A stretch of DNA of 58,953 nt from assembly GCA_035583445.1 (NCBI GenBank), contig DATEYD010000041.1, positions 1 to 58,953 on the forward strand, in the 5' to 3' direction. The DNA comes from Minisyncoccota bacterium (GTDB taxonomy: Bacteria; Patescibacteriota; Minisyncoccia; 2-02-FULL-40-12; GWA2-44-9). Made by a program: the position numbers and the translations under genes. How positions within the stretch are numbered: the first letter of the stretch is position 1; every line of letters starts with the position of its first letter. This document shows positions 5,600-42,061 of the stretch, piece after piece. The notes under the pieces were generated by a model. It was not told the origin of the DNA. It worked only from the letters and a program-made list of their open reading frames with translations, and did no database searches.

Positions 5600-7666
5600 A
5601 TGTCGAGCATCGAGCTCCCCAAGGCATACGACCCTGCTGCCACCGAAGACCACATCTACCAACGCTGGACGGACAGCGGATTTTTCAATCCTGACAACCT
5701 TCCCGGCGAACGGACGAAGAACTTCGTCACGGCCATCGCTCCTCCGAACATTACCGGCGAGCTCCATATGGGACATGCGCTGGAGACTTCCCTAGAGGAC
5801 ATCCTCGTCCGCATGCGTCGTATGCAAGGATACCGGGTGCTCTACCTGCCCGGCACCGACCACGCTGGCATCGCCGCACAGAATAAGGTTGAAAAACAAC
5901 TCGCTAAGGAAGGGACAACGCGTCAGAAGCTCGGCCGTGAGAAATTCCTTGAGCGCATGTGGGAGTGGAAGGAGAAGTACGGAGGCATCATTCTGAGCCA
6001 GTTCCGCAAGCTCGGCCTCTCCCTGGACTGGAGCCGCTCCCGCTTCACCATGGACCCCGCATACCAGAAAGCCGTCGAGACCGCGTTCAAGGAATACCAC
6101 TCGCGCGGATGGATCTACCAAGGCGAACGGGTCGTGAATTGGTGCGCCCGCTGCGCCACGTCCATTTCCGACCTCGAGGTGAATTATGTGCCGGAGAAGA
6201 CCAAGCTCTACTACATCACCTACGGACCGTTCACGCTTGCTACCACGCGCCCCGAGACCAAGCTGGGTGACACCGCCCTGGCAGTTCACCCGGATGACGA
6301 CCGGTACCGGCAGTATGTTGGACAGGAATTGGAGATCGAGTCCGTCGATCCCTCGGTTCCGCAGGACCAGCCGCCCCTGAAGAAGACGATCCGCATCACG
6401 GTCGTCGCTGATGAGGCGGTGGATCCGAAGTTCGGCACCGGCATCGTGAAAGTGACACCCGCGCATGATGTGACCGATTCTGAGATCGCCCAACGGCACG
6501 CTCTGCCCTCCGTGACCATTATCGACGAGCACGGTCGGATGAATGACAATGCGGGCGTCCGCTATGCGGGGATGAAGGTCGCCCAAGCTCGTGAGCACAT
6601 CGTCCATGACCTCGAACAGCTCGGACTGCTCCCGAAGACGGAAGAATACGAGCACAACATCGGTCGGTGCGACCGATGCGACTCGGTCATCGAACCACTG
6701 CCGTCCAAGCAATGGTTCTTGAAGATGAGCGAGCTCGCGAAGCTCGCGCTTGAGGCGCTCGACCGCGAGGAAGTCCGCGTGCGGCCTGAGCGTTGGGGCG
6801 TCGCGCTCCAACGCTGGCTTGAGAATGTGCGCGATTGGAACATCTCCCGACAGCTTTGGTGGGGGCACAAGATCCCGCTGGAAGGCGTGGATGACGTCCT
6901 GGACACCTGGTTCTCATCAGCGCTCTGGCCGTTCGCGACGCTTGGGTGGCCGGAGAAGACACCCGATATGGATCAGTACTACCCGACCCAGTTCATCACC
7001 TCTGACCGTGGCATTCTCTTCCTCTGGCAGGCGCGAATGATCTTCTCGGGGAAGTTCTTCACCGGCAAAGCGCCGTTCAGTGACCTGTACATCCATGCGA
7101 CCGTGCTCACCAAGGACGGAAAGCGGATGTCCAAGTCATTGGGCACAGGCGTGGACCCGTTGGTCCTCATCGAGAAATACGGGGCTGACGCCCTCCGGTT
7201 CGGTCTGGCATACCAGACGACACTGGGGCAGGACATGAAGTTCGGCGAGGACACGAGCCTCATGGGCAAGAAGTTCGCCAACAAGCTCTGGAACATCGCC
7301 CGCTACGTGCTCGGAAAAGTCGGTGACGTGCAACCGTACCTTAAATCAACAAGTGTTTCGAGTAATTGGACTACAAAGATCGATGCGCTCGCTACAGCAG
7401 TTACGGCGCATGTCGAGAGCTATCAGTTCGGCGAGGCCGCCCATGCGCTGTATGACTTCGTCTGGCACGACATTGCCGACACCTACATCGAGGAAACGAA
7501 GAACCGAGATGACGAAGAGACCAAAAAAACCTTGGTCTACCTGCTTCTCACCTCCCTGAAGCTGCTCCATCCGTTCATGCCGTTCGTCACCGAAGAGCTC
7601 TGGGGCCGGATCCATGGAACGGATGATCCGGCCACGATGCTCGTGGTGCAGGCGTGGCCGCGCTAG
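5600..7666 (+). CDS. valS: valine--tRNA ligase (short form, 688 aa)
   Basis: ATG at 5600 inside ORF 5453..7666 (MSSIELPKAYDPAATEDHIYQRW). HIGH-type PPNITGELHMGH, editing-domain TRPETKLGDTALAVHP, KMSKS as GKRMSKS. Confidence 0.9.
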   Translation: MSSIELPKAYDPAATEDHIYQRWTDSGFFNPDNLPGERTKNFVTAIAPPNITGELHMGHALETSLEDILVRMRRMQGYRVLYLPGTDHAGIAAQNKVEKQLAKEGTTRQKLGREKFLERMWEWKEKYGGIILSQFRKLGLSLDWSRSRFTMDPAYQKAVETAFKEYHSRGWIYQGERVVNWCARCATSISDLEVNYVPEKTKLYYITYGPFTLATTRPETKLGDTALAVHPDDDRYRQYVGQELEIESVDPSVPQDQPPLKKTIRITVVADEAVDPKFGTGIVKVTPAHDVTDSEIAQRHALPSVTIIDEHGRMNDNAGVRYAGMKVAQAREHIVHDLEQLGLLPKTEEYEHNIGRCDRCDSVIEPLPSKQWFLKMSELAKLALEALDREEVRVRPERWGVALQRWLENVRDWNISRQLWWGHKIPLEGVDDVLDTWFSSALWPFATLGWPEKTPDMDQYYPTQFITSDRGILFLWQARMIFSGKFFTGKAPFSDLYIHATVLTKDGKRMSKSLGTGVDPLVLIEKYGADALRFGLAYQTTLGQDMKFGEDTSLMGKKFANKLWNIARYVLGKVGDVQPYLKSTSVSSNWTTKIDALATAVTAHVESYQFGEAAHALYDFVWHDIADTYIEETKNRDDEETKKTLVYLLLTSLKLLHPFMPFVTEELWGRIHGTDDPATMLVVQAWPR

Positions 7667-20830: not shown

Positions 20831-20903
20831 GGGGGAGTAGCTCAGCGGTTAGAGCACGAAGCTTATACCTTCGCGGTCCTAGGTTCGAATCCTAGCTCCC
20901 CCA
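20831..20903 (+). tRNA. tRNA-Ile(TAT)
   Basis: Acceptor GGGGGAG/CTCCCCC, D arm GCTC-AGCGGTTA-GAGC, anticodon arm CGAAG-CTTATAC-CTTCG (positions 34-36 = TAT), T arm CTAGG-TTCGAAT-CCTAG, discriminator A. Confidence 0.8.
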
Positions 20904-20907
20904 CCCG

Positions 20908-22357: not shown

Positions 22358-22381
22358 AAAAACCGCCCGAAGGCGGTTTTT
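22358..22381. terminator. hairpin terminator between rplS (+) and the intron-containing tRNA (-)
   Basis: AAAAACCGCC-cgaa-GGCGGTTTTT. Confidence 0.65.
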
Positions 22382-22388
22382 GCATCTG

Positions 22389-22662
22389 TGCCGCGGGAGG
22401 GAATTGAACCCCCGACGCCAGCCTCTTCCGAAGCTGAGTTGGACTATATCATCCTCCGTTCCGGAGGTCGGGCGCTGATGTGGGGTTATTGTTGGGACTC
22501 ACCCACTAGTCTCTACACCTTCTCCGCCACCAATGCCCGGCGGAGCTTGGCTCGGGATTGCTTCGTTCGAAGGTTTCCCCGAGTTCACCCGATTTTCAAT
22601 CCGCATTCCTGCGGAAGGCCCCAAAGATTTAGGGCTGCGCTCTACCACTGAGCTACCGCGGC
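22389..22662 (-). tRNA. tRNA gene interrupted by a group I intron. After conceptual splicing it reads as tRNA-Phe(GAA).
   Basis: 5' exon 22662-22631 (GCCGCGG TA GCTC AGTGGTA GAGC G CAGCC CT). 3' exon 22428-22389 (GAAGA GGCTG GCGTC GGGGG TTCAATT CCCTC CCGCGGC A). Joined, they give a 72-nt cloverleaf. Confidence 0.75.
22429..22630 (-). ncRNA. group I self-splicing intron (IC3-like, 202 nt, no ORF)
   Basis: P1: GCCCU at the exon end pairs with GGGGC, with G.U at the splice site. P10: UCUUU pairs with GAAGA. The intron ends in G. Core strings ACUCGGGGAAACCU, GCAAUCCCGAGCCAAGC, GAAGGUGUAGAGACUAG (rc of 22506-22522) and AUAGUCC. Confidence 0.75.
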
Positions 22663-22736
22663 CTGCATATATACTATCATGGAATCATGGCGCTCGCAAC
22701 GTATGTCTGGTAGAGCGTAGTGTGCTATACTCAAAC

Positions 22737-23111
22737 ATGCCGATCTGCAAACTCTGCCGAAAAAAATACGAGGATTATCAGGGCAAGATGCGGGCGCGGT
22801 GCGGAGCGTGCAACACCAAAATCCGTAGATATCGCGCCAAGGCTGCGGCCATTAAGTTATTGGGTGGCAAGTGCGCCGATTGCGGATGGCGCGGGAATCA
22901 GGCGGCTCTCCAATTCCATCATCGGGCTCCGGAACATAAGGATTTCACGCTTGGCAATGTCGCGAACAAGAGCTGGGACTTCATACGGACCGAACTGAAG
23001 AAATGCATCCTCCTATGCGCAAACTGCCATGCGACGAGGCACTCCTCAAAAGAGGAGAGGAGGTTCCTGCTCGAGGCATCCCGATACCGAGGGAGAAAAC
23101 TACTCTTCTAG
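22737..23111 (+). CDS. free-standing HNH endonuclease (124 aa)
   Basis: ATG at 22737 inside ORF 22533..23111. N-terminal Cys4 (CKLC...CGAC) and HNH core QFHHRAPEHKDF...LLCANCHATRH. Confidence 0.8.
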   Translation: MPICKLCRKKYEDYQGKMRARCGACNTKIRRYRAKAAAIKLLGGKCADCGWRGNQAALQFHHRAPEHKDFTLGNVANKSWDFIRTELKKCILLCANCHATRHSSKEERRFLLEASRYRGRKLLF

Positions 23112-23114
23112 GTG

Positions 23115-23188
23115 TGGGCGGTATAGGACTTGAACCTATGACCTCCTCGACGTCAACGAGGCGCTCTAGCCAACTGAGCTAACCGCCC
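23115..23188 (-). tRNA. tRNA-Val(GAC)
   Basis: rc: GGGCGGT TA GCTC AGTTGGCTA GAGC G CCTCG TTGACGT CGAGG AGGTC ATAGG TTCAAGT CCTAT ACCGCCC A. Confidence 0.88.
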
Positions 23189-37085: not shown

Positions 37086-39206
37086 ATGCGATTCCGTATG
37101 CCCACGCGCGTACGAGTCCGTCTTCCCCGCCGCGGTCGCACCCCGTGGCGTTCTTGGGTTCGCTCGGTCCTCGGTCTTGGGCTCTGGGTCGCCGTGATCG
37201 GCGTCATCGGTGTCTCCCTCTTCATCCTCGACGCCCGTCGTTCCCTGCCCGACCCCGATTCCATCGTGTCTCGACAGGTCAAGGAATCGACCAAGATCTA
37301 TGATTATACCGGAGAGGTTGTGTTGTATGACATCTACGACGAGGAACGGCGCACCGTCGTCCCGCTCGATCGGATCAGTGAGAACCTCCGCGAGGCGACG
37401 GTTGCCGTTGAGGATGCGCGGTTCTATGAGCACCGCGGGTTCGATTGGAAGGGGTTCATCCGTTCGATCGTCACAAACCTGAAGCAGGGATACGGCGCGG
37501 GAGGAGGGTCAACCATCACCCAGCAACTCGTGGGAAACGCCCTGGTGGGCCGCCAGAAGACACTGAAGCGGAAGGTACAAGAGCTTATCCTTGCCCTCGA
37601 GGTGGAGCGACGTTTCTCGAAGAATGCCATCCTTGAGATGTATCTCAACCAGATTCCATACGGATCCAACGCCTATGGCGCCGAGGCGGCCGCGCAGACG
37701 TTCTTCGACGTCCCCGCGGCAGACCTCTCTATTGCCCGGGCAGCGCTGTTGGCAGCGCTCCCCCAACGTCCGTCATACCTCTCTCCGTACGGGTCGCACG
37801 TCGACGAACTCTTGGCGCGCAAAGACTTCATCCTGACCCGGATGAATGAGCTTGGGCTGATCACTCAGTCGGAATACGAGAACGCGCGCATCGAAGAAGT
37901 GGTGTTTGCACAAGGATCAGTCGATATCACCCCCCAGCATTTCGTTGAGATGGTCCGTGAATACCTGACAGAAAAGTACGGAGAGGACCTTGTGCAGAGT
38001 AGTGGGTACAAGATCATCACCACCCTCGATGCGGACCTCCAACAGAAGGCTGAAGAATTAGTCACGCATTACGCAGAGATTAATACGGAGAAATACAAAG
38101 CGACCAACGCTGCGCTCGTTGCGACTGATCCGCGTACCGGCGAGGTGCGGGCGCTCGTCGGGTCCGCCGATTATTTCAATGTCGAGAATGAAGGCAACTT
38201 CAACGTGGCGACTGCACGGCGACAACCTGGTTCGGCTTTCAAGCCGTTCGCGTATGCTGCCGCCTTTGCGAAGGGATATCCCGACAGCACCATCCTCTGG
38301 GACGTGAAGACTGAGTTCAACCAGTATTGCCCCGCTGATGCGACCGCAACGAAGGATCGCTTCGGATTGGACTGCTACCACCCCCAGAACTACAACGGCG
38401 GGTATAGTGGTCCGGTCACGATGCGCCAATCGCTTTCCCGATCTCTGAATATCCCGTCCGTAAAAACCCTCTACCTTGCCGGTGTCGACAATGTGGTATC
38501 TCTGGCCACACGGATGGGTATCAGCACCCTAGGGAACAACACCTGGGGCCTCTCGCTTGTCTTGGGGGGCGCTGAAGTCCGGCTGGTTGATATGGTGTCT
38601 GCCTACGGTGTATTCGCTGCAGATGGTATACGGACCCCCTGGGGCCTTATTAAGCGCGTTGAGGGACCAGATGGGGGCATCCTCGAAGAGCGTAAGGTCA
38701 ACCCTGAGCGGGTACTAGAGGCACAAACCGTACGTCTTGTGACCGACATCCTCTCCGACAACAACGCCCGCACACCAGTCTTCGGCGTGAATAGCTCCCT
38801 TTACATACCCGGAAGGAGTGTTGCCGCAAAGACTGGTACTACCCAGGAGAACCGCGATGCGTGGGTGGTGGGCTATACCCCATCGTTGGTGGTTGGTGTA
38901 TGGGCTGGGAACAACCACAACCAATCCATGACCGCAGCCGGAGCTGGTATCAGCGCCGCTGGTCCTCTCTGGAACGCATTTATGCGTGCTGCGCTAAGTA
39001 ACACTCCCGTCGAAAGCTTCCCGAAACCCGACCCTGTTGTTGTAGGGAAGCCGATGCTGAATGGGATGTGGGCCTCGCCGGAGTATCCCCAACAACACAC
39101 CGTTCTGTTTTATGTCGATCGATCGAACCCGTTGGGACCGATCCCGACATCACCTGAAGCTGATCCCCAGTTCCAAAATTGGGAGTGGGCGGTGGGGAAT
39201 CGCTAA
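37086..39206 (+). CDS. class A penicillin-binding protein (glycosyltransferase GT51 plus transpeptidase)
   Basis: ATG at 37086 inside ORF 36852..39206. TM anchor. GT51 motifs AVEDARFYEHRGFD, GGSTITQQL, RKVQELILALEVE. TP motifs SAFKPF, SRSLN, KTGTT. Confidence 0.9.
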   Translation: MRFRMPTRVRVRLPRRGRTPWRSWVRSVLGLGLWVAVIGVIGVSLFILDARRSLPDPDSIVSRQVKESTKIYDYTGEVVLYDIYDEERRTVVPLDRISENLREATVAVEDARFYEHRGFDWKGFIRSIVTNLKQGYGAGGGSTITQQLVGNALVGRQKTLKRKVQELILALEVERRFSKNAILEMYLNQIPYGSNAYGAEAAAQTFFDVPAADLSIARAALLAALPQRPSYLSPYGSHVDELLARKDFILTRMNELGLITQSEYENARIEEVVFAQGSVDITPQHFVEMVREYLTEKYGEDLVQSSGYKIITTLDADLQQKAEELVTHYAEINTEKYKATNAALVATDPRTGEVRALVGSADYFNVENEGNFNVATARRQPGSAFKPFAYAAAFAKGYPDSTILWDVKTEFNQYCPADATATKDRFGLDCYHPQNYNGGYSGPVTMRQSLSRSLNIPSVKTLYLAGVDNVVSLATRMGISTLGNNTWGLSLVLGGAEVRLVDMVSAYGVFAADGIRTPWGLIKRVEGPDGGILEERKVNPERVLEAQTVRLVTDILSDNNARTPVFGVNSSLYIPGRSVAAKTGTTQENRDAWVVGYTPSLVVGVWAGNNHNQSMTAAGAGISAAGPLWNAFMRAALSNTPVESFPKPDPVVVGKPMLNGMWASPEYPQQHTVLFYVDRSNPLGPIPTSPEADPQFQNWEWAVGNR

Positions 39207-40291
39207 CCGCGCAGCGGCATGACGATGTAGACGAGTTTTAATCCGTCGTCGGGGCGAAGTACGAACGGGCTTCCCTTTCCGGTGAATTCCAATATCACCT
39301 TTTCGGTTGGGATGATTTTTAATCCGTCCAAAAGGTAGTGGTAGTTTAGGGAGATATCGAATGCGTCCCCCTTCAGGTTCGCCTCAAGATCTGCGACCCC
39401 CTCCCCCTTTGCTGAGTGCTTCCCGGAAACCGTCAATTCTTTTTCAGTGCATGCTAGTTTGACGTCTGAGATACTTGACGAGAACAGCGAGGCTATATGG
39501 ATAGCGTTGGCAAAATCTTCGCGGCGCACCAGGACTTTTGCGAGGGAACGATCCGGGACTACCTTCTGGTAGTCTGGGAATTTCCCGTCAATCAATCGGG
39601 ATATCACATCAAGCCCTTCGTGGGTAAATAAAATTTGGTTATCCGCGATCCTTGCGGTCACCTCGCCGCGCACACCACCAAAAACACGGATCAATTCCAT
39701 GATGGTGGTTCGGGGAATAATAACCACTCGGTCTCCTTTTTGTGGTTCTGGAATGACGTGTTCGACTAACCGAAAACTATCGGTCGCAGCAATGGTGATG
39801 CCTTGCTTGTTAAAACTCAATAAGGCTCCGGCCAATTCGGGTCGTGATTCGGATGTCGCAATCGAATCCATCGCGCTCACACAAAGTGTGTGTAGTTGTT
39901 CTATAGGAAACACATACTCAACCCCAGACGTGATGGATGGGATAATGGGGTATTCCGCCGGGTCAAAACAAAGGATGGTGGTCTTTGAAGATCCTGCCGA
40001 AGCCGATAATACATTCGCTGCAACCCTCAAGGTGACTGCGTCCGACCGGGAAGCGCGCACTAAGTCGGTTAAAAGCCGTGCAGGTACCGCGACCGAGCCC
40101 TCTTTAGTCACCTTGGCTCCAACCGCGACCGTAATACCCACCTCAAGATTTGTCGCGGACAGGTGGAGTTGCCCACCTGCGGCTCTCATGAGGATGTTCC
40201 CCAAAATAGGGAGTGTTGCGTTCTTGGCCGCAATTTTCTCGGTTGAGAGAAGTGCTCGTTGTAGGTTTTCCCGATGAATGACGACGTCCAT
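39203..40291 (-). CDS. dnaN: DNA polymerase III beta sliding clamp
   Basis: 362 aa. ...AAKNATLPILGNILMRAAGGQLHLSATNLEV... Immediately downstream of dnaA/oriC. Confidence 0.92.
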   Translation of the reverse strand: MDVVIHRENLQRALLSTEKIAAKNATLPILGNILMRAAGGQLHLSATNLEVGITVAVGAKVTKEGSVAVPARLLTDLVRASRSDAVTLRVAANVLSASAGSSKTTILCFDPAEYPIIPSITSGVEYVFPIEQLHTLCVSAMDSIATSESRPELAGALLSFNKQGITIAATDSFRLVEHVIPEPQKGDRVVIIPRTTIMELIRVFGGVRGEVTARIADNQILFTHEGLDVISRLIDGKFPDYQKVVPDRSLAKVLVRREDFANAIHIASLFSSSISDVKLACTEKELTVSGKHSAKGEGVADLEANLKGDAFDISLNYHYLLDGLKIIPTEKVILEFTGKGSPFVLRPDDGLKLVYIVMPLRG

Positions 40292-40506
40292 GGTTATAGT
40301 AATAATATTATTTTATAGAATATTACTCTTATTATTATGTCTGTGGATTTGTGGATGGATACCCGAAATACTACGCCCTACCTGAAGAATGAGTGATTTT
40401 CGTTTTCGCATGTCTTGTGGATAGATTGGTGGTTGGTGTGGGTTATTTCTGTGATTTTTCTCGGATATCACAATAAATAGCTTTTCTTCCACACACGACA
40501 AACACG
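40292..40506. other. chromosomal replication origin (oriC) in the dnaA-dnaN spacer
   Basis: AT-rich unwinding-type stretch at 40293-40340. DnaA-box-like 9-mers TGTGGATTT (40342-50), TGTGGATGG (40350-58), TGTGGATAG (40416-24) and a weaker TCTTCCACA (40485-93). Confidence 0.75.
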
Positions 40507-41898
40507 TTATTCGAATGAATCATACACACGTTGCCGGATCATGGTGAGCTCGTTCTTGAGTGGCTCGTCGGCCTGTTCTTCTCTTTTAATCTTCTCGCAC
40601 GCATGGATCACAGTGGAGTGGTCGCGACCACCAAGTTTTTGGCCAATATCTGGGAAGGAAAGCTTAATTTCCTCACGAAGTAAATACATGGCGACTTGGC
40701 GTGGCTTTACCACTTCCTTCTTCCGGCTTCGCTTGGTGAGGTCGGCTGGGGAAATATTATAGAAGTCCGCAACCGTCTTCAGAATTATCTGCGGTGACGT
40801 CTTTCGGTATGGGACGGCGAGGTATGCGTTGAGGATGTTTTTGGTCTCCTTAAGGTCGGGTACACGGTTGTAGATTTGAGAAAGCGCGATAACCCGGTTG
40901 AGGGCCCCCTCGAGTTCTCGGATGTTCTTTTGTATGTGGGTGCCGATATACGAAAGCACCTCATCAGAGAAGACAACGCCTTTTTCTGCGGATTTAGCCT
41001 TTAGGATAGCGACCCGTGTTTCGAAATCCGGAGCGTTGATGTCCGCGAGCATTCCCCCAACCAAGCGTGACAAGAGGCGTTCTTCGATTGCTGGAATTGC
41101 TGTGGGTGGACGGTCGGATGTCATCACGACCTGGCGATTCTTGTTGTGGATTTCATTAAAGATGGTGAACACGATTTCCTGCATCTTCTCTTTTCCTGCG
41201 ATGAATTGGATGTCATCAATAATAAGAAGGTCGAGACCCGAGTAAAGGTTCTTGAGGTCTTCGATGGTGCGGTTGCGGATTCCCTCGACAATCGCCGATA
41301 CCATCTTTTCGCCTGATGCGTACAACACCTTCCGCTCAGGAGCCTTTTCAAGCACCGCGTTGCCGATTGACTGCACGAGGTGGGTCTTCCCTAACCCCAC
41401 CCCACCATAAATGAAAAGCGGGTTATACGGCTTCGGGAGGTTCCCGACGATGCACTGGGAAACGCTTTGCGCACACGCGAACGCCAATTCATTTGCCGAC
41501 CCCACGATAAAGGAGTTGAATGAATACTTTTTGTTAAGTGATGTCGTCTTATCGATCTCCTGGTTCTGCTCCCCGCTCGTCTGCTCCTGGAGGTCTCGAT
41601 CGACGATCATCTTCGAGAAGTCTTGGCGGATCGGTTCCGGCTTCGGCTGCCCGATAATATAGCGAACCTCACGGATCTCATTGGAGAGTTTCCGGATCGA
41701 GTAGATGATTTGCTTGTTAAACTTATTCTCGAGCCACTCCTTCACAAACCCATTCGGCACACTGACCGTGACCGAATTCTGATCCCGAGAAACGATCGAT
41801 GTATTCTTAAACCAGGTTGTGAAGTGCGCTTTTGAAAGCGAAAGCTCCATATCACAGAGCACCGCCTTCCAGATTTCTTCGGGTGTTGCCGGGAGCAT
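40507..41898 (-). CDS. dnaA: chromosomal replication initiator protein DnaA
   Basis: 463 aa. Walker [11 protein letters not shown], Walker [11 protein letters not shown]-terminal DNA-binding ...[11 protein letters not shown]. Confidence 0.96.
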
Positions 41899-42061
41899 GT
41901 GTGCGCGTAAACGGATGAATCGTGTCGCAAGTATATCCTACACCCCCACCCCCTCAAGCGCCGTTCAACACCCGATTCGTTGATAGGATGTGTATAACAG
42001 GTGGAAAAAGTGGCGTAAATATTGACGCGTAGAAGAAAGCGTAGTAAGCTGTTCCGGCACC

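Follow-up and report, generated by a model that had tools for sequence, protein, structure and literature searches.

A split gene for tRNA-Phe(GAA) lies on the minus strand at 22389-22662 of the 59-kb stretch of Minisyncoccota DNA analyzed here (contig DATEYD010000041.1, assembly GCA_035583445.1), which we call the window; all positions are those of the whole stretch. The gene is interrupted between nucleotides 33 and 34 of the tRNA, and its parts are the following:

22662-22631, minus strand: tRNA-Phe 5' exon, 32 nucleotides (nt), GCCGCGGUAGCUCAGUGGUAGAGCGCAGCCCU (GCCGCGG...CAGCC-CU), found with ARAGORN in intron mode; it holds the 5' strand of the acceptor stem, the D arm, the 5' strand of the anticodon stem (CAGCC), C32 and U33.
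22630-22429, minus strand: group I intron, 202 nt, without an open reading frame (ORF), matched by Rfam RF00028 at 69.6 bits (E 1e-15).
22428-22389, minus strand: tRNA-Phe 3' exon, 40 nt, GAAGAGGCUGGCGUCGGGGGUUCAAUUCCCUCCCGCGGCA (GAAGA-GGCUG...CCGCGGC-A); it holds G34 A35 A36 G37 A38, the stem strand GGCUG, the variable loop, the T arm, the 3' strand of the acceptor stem and the discriminator A.

The U at 22631 (minus strand) is the -1 nucleotide of the 5' splice site. The intron starts with AAAUCUUUGGGGCC (also given as AAAUCUUU) and ends in ...CAGCUUCG (also ...CUCAGCUUCG), its last nucleotide, at 22429, being the terminal guanosine (omegaG). CCA is not encoded by the tRNA-Phe gene of the window; some relatives do encode it.

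A preliminary description of this locus, made from the letters of the sequence, had proposed the same exon and insert coordinates, a search with the Rfam group I intron model and an intron-aware run of ARAGORN. The coordinates agree with both the sequence and ARAGORN, which, with introns allowed, reported tRNA-Phe(gaa) i(33,202); once joined, the two exons form a 72-nt tRNA-Phe cloverleaf of canonical shape with the anticodon loop CU-GAA-GA. The search of the whole window with Intron_gpI (RF00028) gave a match of 69.6 bits (E 1.2e-15), above the gathering score of 50, that spans 22419-22640 on the minus strand and positions 1-253 of the 253 in the model, which is well outside what chance would give. 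In the Rfam alignment, GCCCU, the splice site and AAA...UUUGGGGC are covered by P1 of the model, including its conserved U and G, and P2 through P8 come next. A stretch of 30 nt between P7 and P3 is an insertion relative to the model, and P9 of the model falls on the last bases of the intron and the first of the exon. The split gene was missed both by ARAGORN with default settings, which found ten other tRNA genes in the window and tRNA-Phe not among them, and by the Rfam tRNA model.

Relatives were collected by scanning species-representative genomes with the pattern AUAGUC ... G/GAARA ... GUUCRA (the slash marks the splice junction), which gave at least 119 loci, and by then requiring a split tRNA in the intron mode of ARAGORN and a perfect 7-bp acceptor stem. 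Among the matches listed, 32 relatives were kept, all with tRNA-Phe(GAA) split at the same place and with inserts of 197-287 nt. The other loci failed this filter and are probably chance matches to a pattern that is too loose. Seven more split relatives came from look-ups centered on the HNH-like gene described below, bringing the total to 39 with introns of 194-287 nt. Nearly all of the 39 are from Patescibacteria; most of the 32 from the scan are labeled as such (Saccharibacteria, Yanofsky-, Sungii-, Taylor- and Harrisonbacteria, Paceibacterota, "Parcubacteria group"), and a few carry only a generic label or are labeled as Gammaproteobacteria. The gathering score of Intron_gpI was passed by 17 of the 18 relatives tested, at 53.6-100.1 bits. 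The smallest member (L132, 1142-1408, minus strand), with an intron of 194 nt and an HNH neighbor, is below the gathering score and aligns with the family.

The structure was then examined by scoring a hand-drawn model, comprising the tRNA stems, P1, P2, P3, P4, P5, P6, P6a, P7, an extra hairpin, P8, P10 and a 3' tail helix, on a MAFFT alignment of 33 sequences with more than 400 columns; all pairing values below refer to these sequences. The elements of the intron are:

22618-22635, minus strand: P1, exon GCCCU (22635-22631) with the guide GGGGC (22622-22618, intron nucleotides 9-13), plus an A-U extension into the intron.
22623-22627, minus strand: P10 guide UCUUU, which pairs with the first nucleotides of the 3' exon, GAAGA (22428-22424).
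22599-22616, minus strand: P2 hairpin with the GNRA-type loop GGAA, present in the minimum free energy (MFE) fold.
22517-22592, minus strand: P3 5' strand (22592-22586) and the P4-P5-P6-P6a domain (22582-22517).
22507-22513, minus strand: P7 5' strand G.GACUA inside the conserved GUAGAGACUA; its partner is UAGUCC at 22446-22441.
22480-22506, minus strand: P7.1-like hairpin of 27 nt, stem GUGGG/CCCAC, with a conserved 17-nt loop, UGAGUCCCAACAAUAAC.
22441-22474, minus strand: P3 3' strand (22474-22468), P8 (22467-22453), J8/7 and P7 3' strand (22446-22441), from Rfam, covariation and the MFE fold.
22419-22436, minus strand: 3'-splice-site hairpin, intron CAGCUUC with tRNA nucleotides 37-43 (GAGGCUG), -9.5 kcal/mol.

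Standard pairs occupied 93.0% of the cells, compared to 77% after column shuffles and 38-50% when the partners were slid by 1-3 columns. Compensatory changes on both sides were seen in 49 of 82 pairs, and none of 500 shuffles reached the observed values. The acceptor stem was 100% paired, with compensatory changes, and the anticodon stem assembled from both exons was 97.6% paired, with such changes in all five of its pairs. In P1, the U.G wobble at the splice site was present in all 33 sequences and two pairs showed compensatory changes (GC 18 and CG 14; CG 24 and AU 9). P2 was 93.9% paired, with compensatory changes in 7/7 pairs and with the loop positions G, A and A invariant. Compensatory changes also accompanied pairing in P3 (99.6%), P4 (100%), P6 (96%), P6a (96.1%) and P8 (83.5%), and were found in 5/5 pairs of the P7.1-like hairpin. 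P7 was 100% paired and invariant and, therefore, carries no covariation information; omegaG was invariant as well. P10 was paired in 96.3% of the cells. Folding the intron by itself, with no comparative input, recovered P2, P3, P4, P5, P6a and P8. P1 and P10 as drawn, the final G and the core strings ACUCGGGGAAACCU, GCAAUCCCGAGCCAAGC, GAAGGUGUAGAGACUAG and AUAGUCC had all been picked out in the preliminary description, and each is where it was said to be.

Next, metagenomes were scanned for the predicted ligated junction, AGAGCGCAGCCCUGAAGAGGCUGGCGU. Uninterrupted tRNA-Phe genes with this junction were found at no fewer than 120 loci and, among the matches listed, 17 were identical to the predicted spliced tRNA of the window at 72 of 72 positions. 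These genes indicate that the predicted product is a real tRNA, confirm the junction and show that the intron is optional among close relatives. An optional intron behaves like an element that is gained and lost, that is, a mobile one, rather than like an ancient fixed feature. The proposal that a group I intron without an ORF splits tRNA-Phe(GAA) between nucleotides 33 and 34 is thus backed by Rfam, by the covariation and by the identical intronless genes.

The intronless genes also bear on nucleotide 37 of the tRNA (22425, minus strand). Bacterial tRNA-Phe normally has A37, so that G37 is unusual. Within the alignment, G37 is found in 24 sequences and A37 in 9, and the facing nucleotide of the P10 guide covaries with it (CG 23, UA 9, UG 1). 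The preliminary description was right that the tRNA of the window has G37; a link between G37 and the intron is only partly supported, since the intronless relatives carry G37 too. Judged from these sequences, G37 is a trait of the lineage, to which the guide of the intron is adapted, and not a product of the intron. A guide that tracks nucleotide 37 of its host tRNA is a lead that can be tested.

Taken together, the locus is very probably a tRNA-Phe(GAA) gene in which a group I intron of the type called Phe.2Ug, 202 nt long and without an ORF, separates U33 from G34, in a genome of the Patescibacteria (the candidate phyla radiation, CPR; Parcubacteria type). The sequences show the anatomy, its conservation and covariation, and that exactly the predicted ligated product occurs in nature; that the intron splices itself catalytically is a prediction. 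The mechanism would follow the established group I pathway (as in PMC3984707). GCCCU would pair with the guide GGGGC in P1, where U33 would form the U.G wobble that marks the site of cleavage, and an exogenous guanosine held in P7 would attack after U33. The guide UCUUU would then align the 3' exon GAAGA in P10, and omegaG (22429) would take the place of the guanosine in P7. Finally, attack of the 5' exon after omegaG would release a 72-nt tRNA with the loop CU-GAA-GA, and the anticodon stem could form once the exons have been ligated.

Several observations weigh against this reading. P7 and most of P4 do not vary and, thus, add no support from covariation, and the MFE z-score of the intron by itself (-1.67) is ordinary. 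With no P9 of its own and with an insertion that is not typical of IC3 introns, the intron should not be assumed to be active. Splicing is a prediction for all members of the Phe.2Ug type, and the catalog that lists them is a preprint. Also, the finding that this is the sole tRNA-Phe gene covers 59 kb of the genome.

One other explanation is that the intron has decayed and no longer splices, leaving a tRNA pseudogene while a functional tRNA-Phe gene lies elsewhere in the genome. The missing P9 and the 59-kb view of the genome would fit this. However, the core elements are intact and conserved in 40 members, compensatory changes occur in the exons and in the peripheral helices, and intronless genes that look functional match the exons exactly. 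No second tRNA-Phe gene turned up in the window (59 kb) or in the loci of relatives (241 kb), that is, near any of the 39 split loci. In addition, Lui et al. (2021) report that some tRNAs of closed CPR genomes contain group I introns and are needed for a complete tRNA set. We therefore regard a decayed intron as very improbable. Still less credible is a different splice junction with another anticodon or loop, for although the 3' junction has two successive Gs (G22429 and G22428) and ARAGORN shifts the position (34, 35, 37) in relatives whose intron starts with G or GAA, only CU/GAAGA gives a U-1.G pair (33/33), omegaG and a 7-nt loop, G34 as first exon nucleotide pairs with the guide (CG 18, UG 14), the identical uninterrupted gene exists in nature, and the shifted calls reflect ambiguity of the sequence, not differing biology.

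How new the intron is was judged by comparison with known systems. Apart from Williams (2020, bioRxiv 10.1101/2020.01.27.920355), the literature found on group I introns in tRNA-Phe was limited to passing mentions. According to that preprint, 5292 intron-split bacterial tRNA genes were mapped and the number of types was raised from four (Leu.3Ug, Arg.5Ug, fMet.2Ug and Ile2.5Ug) to 21, with site 2 meaning after the second nucleotide of the anticodon loop, i.e., 33/34. The preliminary description had called this position unusual; since the tRNA-fMet intron of cyanobacteria, one of the classical types (fMet.2Ug), sits there too, the position is not unprecedented. The novelty that was implied is likewise gone, because Phe.2Ug is in the seed alignment of the preprint, and its seed sequence, Mba55.Phe.2Ug, is an exact substring of one of our relatives, L085 (Parcubacteria GW2011_GWD2_38_12). 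The feature is real, common in Patescibacteria and of a type already cataloged, to which the window adds one more member; it is not new.

Aligned over the whole gene, the window and L085 are 69.9% identical in 309 columns. They share the host gene, the insertion site, U-1 and omegaG, the core, a short 3' tail, P1 (GCCCUAA/UUGGGGC) and the P7.1-like hairpin with its ugagucccaacaauaa loop. In contrast, the window intron is 66% identical to that of the seed, is 202 nt rather than 234 nt long, and comes from another lineage of higher G+C. Williams (2020) is silent on the 3'-splice-site hairpin, on covariation of nucleotide 37 with P10, on intronless alleles and on the HNH neighbor; the hairpin would be invisible in its seed alignment, because that alignment stops at omegaG.

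The tRNA-fMet intron (Biniszkiewicz, Cesnaviciene and Shub 1994) shares with ours the 33/34 site, a bacterial tRNA as host and U-1/omegaG, but it interrupts another tRNA and, in the alignment of Williams, has P9 and lacks the P7.1-like hairpin. Some fMet introns have been linked to an endonuclease specific to the anticodon region (Bonocora and Shub 2001). Where present, that endonuclease is encoded in the intron, whereas the HNH ORF of the window lies beside the gene.

The introns of Azoarcus tRNA-Ile and Anabaena tRNA-Leu are also small, ORF-less and located in the anticodon loop. They differ in their sites, 34/35 for Leu and after 36 for Ile and Arg, in lacking a hairpin between P7 and P3, and in forming a P9 of their own that is capped by a GNRA loop. 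We take their IC3 cores to be closely similar to P3-P8 of the window (UCGGGGAAA, AAUCCCGAGCCAAG, GGUGUAGAGACUA, AUAGUCC), partly from the Leu, Arg and Ile rows of the alignment of Williams. By eye, the core strings of our intron do resemble the classical IC3 rows there. The IC3 label of the preliminary description seems to fit the P3-P8 core and does not fit the rest: IC3 introns have no helices between P7 and P3 and have their own P9, while in the present intron an additional hairpin separates P7 from P3 and, with just 12 nt from P7 to omegaG, there is no P9 of its own. Of the 40 members tabulated, 25 have the UGAGUCCCAACAAUAAC loop motif of the extra hairpin and 15 lack it, and about eight of the aligned sequences have a different structure where the hairpin sits. 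Since the 17-nt loop is nearly invariant where it occurs, it suggests a tertiary contact. The seed alignment of Williams draws the P7.1-like hairpin for the Phe.2Ug, Lys.2Ug and Asn.4Ug types.

A second hairpin occupies the place of the missing P9. The seven intron nucleotides that precede omegaG, CAGCUUC, can pair with nucleotides 37-43 of the tRNA so that the loop, G-GAA, consists of omegaG and the anticodon, and the Rfam model aligns this hairpin as P9. Most members without a P9 have it, and where the anticodon stem differs in sequence, it differs accordingly (AUGCUU/GAGCAU, UCGCUUU/GAGGCGG and GACGC/GCGUC). When 15 distinct anticodon stems were compared, the longest complement averaged 5.07, compared to 3.74 after permutation, and none of 5000 permutations reached the observed mean. 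In the MAFFT alignment of all 33 sequences, the 3' tail helix was weak (67% paired); it is clear only when tested without an alignment and in the members that lack P9. Most A37 members have a true P9 with a GNRA loop rather than the hairpin. Because P1 engages three of the five nucleotides that make up the 5' side of the anticodon stem, the 3' strand, GGCUG, is left with no partner in the catalytic fold. Going by the pairing, the 3'-splice-site hairpin may give this orphaned strand a partner and replace P9/L9 until the second step. Possible recruitment of the tRNA anticodon into a helix of the ribozyme is a further lead that can be tested.

With regard to its surroundings, the window is collinear with L046, a metagenome-assembled genome of Candidatus Yanofskybacteria, in several segments at about 75% nucleotide identity, and its genes include FtsH, a pseudouridine synthase, a deaminase and a class-V aminotransferase, all ordinary cellular genes. 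On these grounds, we regard it as a fragment of a Patescibacteria chromosome. The G+C content falls to 0.50 at 39001-42000 compared to about 0.59 in the rest of the window. A tRNA-Ile gene with the anticodon UAU lies at 20831-20905 on the plus strand, in an Ile(UAU)-Val(UAC)-FtsH neighborhood that L120 also has. According to the tRNAscan-SE 2.0 paper, just 17 bacterial genomes have tRNA-Ile(UAU) instead of the CAU type that depends on lysidine. Two further features flank the split gene:

22358-22381, minus strand: terminator-like hairpin A5-CCGCC-UUCG-GGCGG-U5, read from the sequence, which starts 8 nt past the 3' end of the tRNA.
22737-23111, plus strand: HNH-like ORF of 124 aa, divergent from tRNA-Phe, which starts 75 nt from the 5' end of the tRNA.

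A scan for promoter and terminator consensus sequences flagged neither this hairpin at 22358-22381 nor an upstream TTGCGA-N17-TAGTAT. The public protein collection contains a product of 192 aa (P0001, 100% identical) at 22533-23111 on the plus strand, which starts inside the intron and runs antisense over the 5' part of the intron and the 5' exon of the tRNA; it looks like a gene call that was over-extended due to the undetected tRNA.

The HNH-like ORF fills the 451-nt spacer between tRNA-Val(GAC) (23114-23188) and tRNA-Phe. A structured RNA, such as RNase P RNA, was also considered for this spacer and rejected, as an Rfam search to E 5 was empty and the spacer held the ORF instead. The predicted protein has C-x2-C pairs, FHH and CANCH. 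Its match to Pfam HNH (PF01844) covers positions 1-46 of the 47 in the profile and is below the cut-off (17.5 bits compared to 21.4; E 0.0046). Searching NCBIfam with the protein gave nothing useful, and a sequence search of the PDB gave only nonsignificant zinc-ribbon matches. The structure model, examined for the beta-beta-alpha metal fold of HNH nucleases, had a pLDDT (predicted local distance difference test) of 64, a moderate confidence, and its top Foldseek matches, the HNH nucleases Cap5, Gme HNH, T4 endonuclease VII and Cas9 HNH, had E values of 0.07 or worse. Homologs form more than 400 clusters, are 64-81% identical, almost all 122-131 aa long, and occur sporadically across several candidate phyla. 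All of those with names are from Patescibacteria, and some carry a precomputed PF01844 match or the name "HNH endonuclease". Across 33 of these proteins, the H-H, N and C-x2-C-H columns were invariant.

The ORF was found divergently beside the split tRNA-Phe gene, at 75-95 nt, in the window, L046, L006, L049 and L057. When the look-up was centered on the HNH-like gene, all nine loci had tRNA-Phe(GAA) 76-95 nt upstream on the opposite strand; seven of these genes were split and two were intronless. The two genes thus adjoin in 14 of 14 independent loci, and the outer neighbors vary. The closest intronless relatives have a different arrangement. In L199, L188, L202 and L204, Leu(GAG)-Val(GAC)-Phe are packed together with Val-Phe spacers of 2-14 nt and no HNH gene; their Leu-Val identity to the window is 88-92% (L199, L188) and 77-99% (L202, L204), and the tRNA-Phe exons are identical in all four. 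What sets the window apart from these relatives is a pair of insertions, one being the HNH cassette and the other the intron. One spacer of similar length, the 456 nt between Val and Phe in L176, held no HNH remnant.

Two accounts of this neighborhood have to be weighed. The first, to which we give close to an even chance, is that the HNH-like gene and tRNA-Phe are an old, conserved divergent pair of the Parcubacteria with an unrelated function, and that the intron passes down vertically, is lost now and then, and does not home. This is consistent with the conservation of the protein (46 invariant columns and a mean column identity of 66% in 33 sequences), with the constant spacing between the ORF and the tRNA, and with PrsW-HSP20 neighbors that three loci have in common. 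Intact HNH genes also lie beside intronless tRNA-Phe genes in L169 (about 5670-6230, in the orientation of tRNA-Phe), L122 (2332-2875) and L129 (1340-1875). The tight Val-Phe junctions described above, which have no space for an HNH gene, argue against an old pair, as do the varying outer neighbors and the absence of the gene from 24 of the 28 split relatives with enough upstream DNA.

The second account would add to our explanation of the intron. By analogy, the HNH-like gene could be a free-standing homing endonuclease acting on tRNA-Phe that forms a collaborative-homing pair with the ORF-less intron, a possibility that we consider plausible and rather less likely than not. Collaborative homing has been described for phages (PMC3984707, 2014). 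The nuclease would cut intronless alleles, repair would copy in the intron together with the nuclease gene, and a carrier would be protected by its intron. As in the phage case, there is an ORF-less intron in a conserved gene and a free-standing HNH-type gene alongside, and both are absent from close relatives. Unlike the phage case, the host here is a cellular Patescibacteria genome, the target is a tRNA gene rather than a protein gene, some loci have the nuclease gene without the intron, and the system is known from its sequence.

What favors homing is that an ORF-less intron and a free-standing candidate endonuclease gene lie side by side at the host gene, that both are polymorphic among relatives, and that close relatives with identical tRNA-Phe exons have neither. 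The divergent ORF stays beside tRNA-Phe despite differing outer neighbors, the tRNA-Phe genes in seven of the nine look-ups are split, and the homologs are sporadic despite being 64-81% identical across several candidate phyla. The HNH gene was also present at 5 of 29 intron-bearing loci and at 1 of the 100 intronless loci whose upstream DNA was long enough (Fisher p = 0.002), although the two samples differ in taxonomic make-up. On the other hand, in L122, L129 and L169 the HNH gene is intact and the tRNA-Phe beside it has no intron. L169 is awkward if the site of intron insertion is the target, because its anticodon arm is the same as that of the window. The uniform length and high conservation of the protein resemble purifying selection more than a decaying selfish gene, and its assignment as a nuclease is weak by the Pfam, pLDDT and Foldseek values given above.

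A broader proposal joins the homing pair to the 3'-splice-site hairpin. In it, the intron and the HNH gene would be a collaborative-homing pair that spreads across the tRNA-Phe genes of Patescibacteria, and the members that lack P9 would borrow nucleotides 37-43 of the tRNA as a surrogate P9, with omegaG and G34-A35-A36 as a GNRA-type loop. The surrogate would have to open before the second splicing step. We consider this combination rather less likely than not; if it were true, it would be the first collaborative-homing pair in a cellular tRNA gene.

The finding has a practical side for annotation, as this split tRNA-Phe gene is overlooked by default tRNA finders and, therefore, genomes of this lineage seem to be without tRNA-Phe. 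For the biology of the family, the HNH-like neighbor is a more interesting lead than the intron itself, and L169, L122 and L129 are useful natural controls for models of homing. Nature provides a series of filled and empty sites for both the intron and the HNH gene. With this series and the two leads on the anticodon and on nucleotide 37, intron mobility in the reduced genomes of Patescibacteria could become experimentally approachable.

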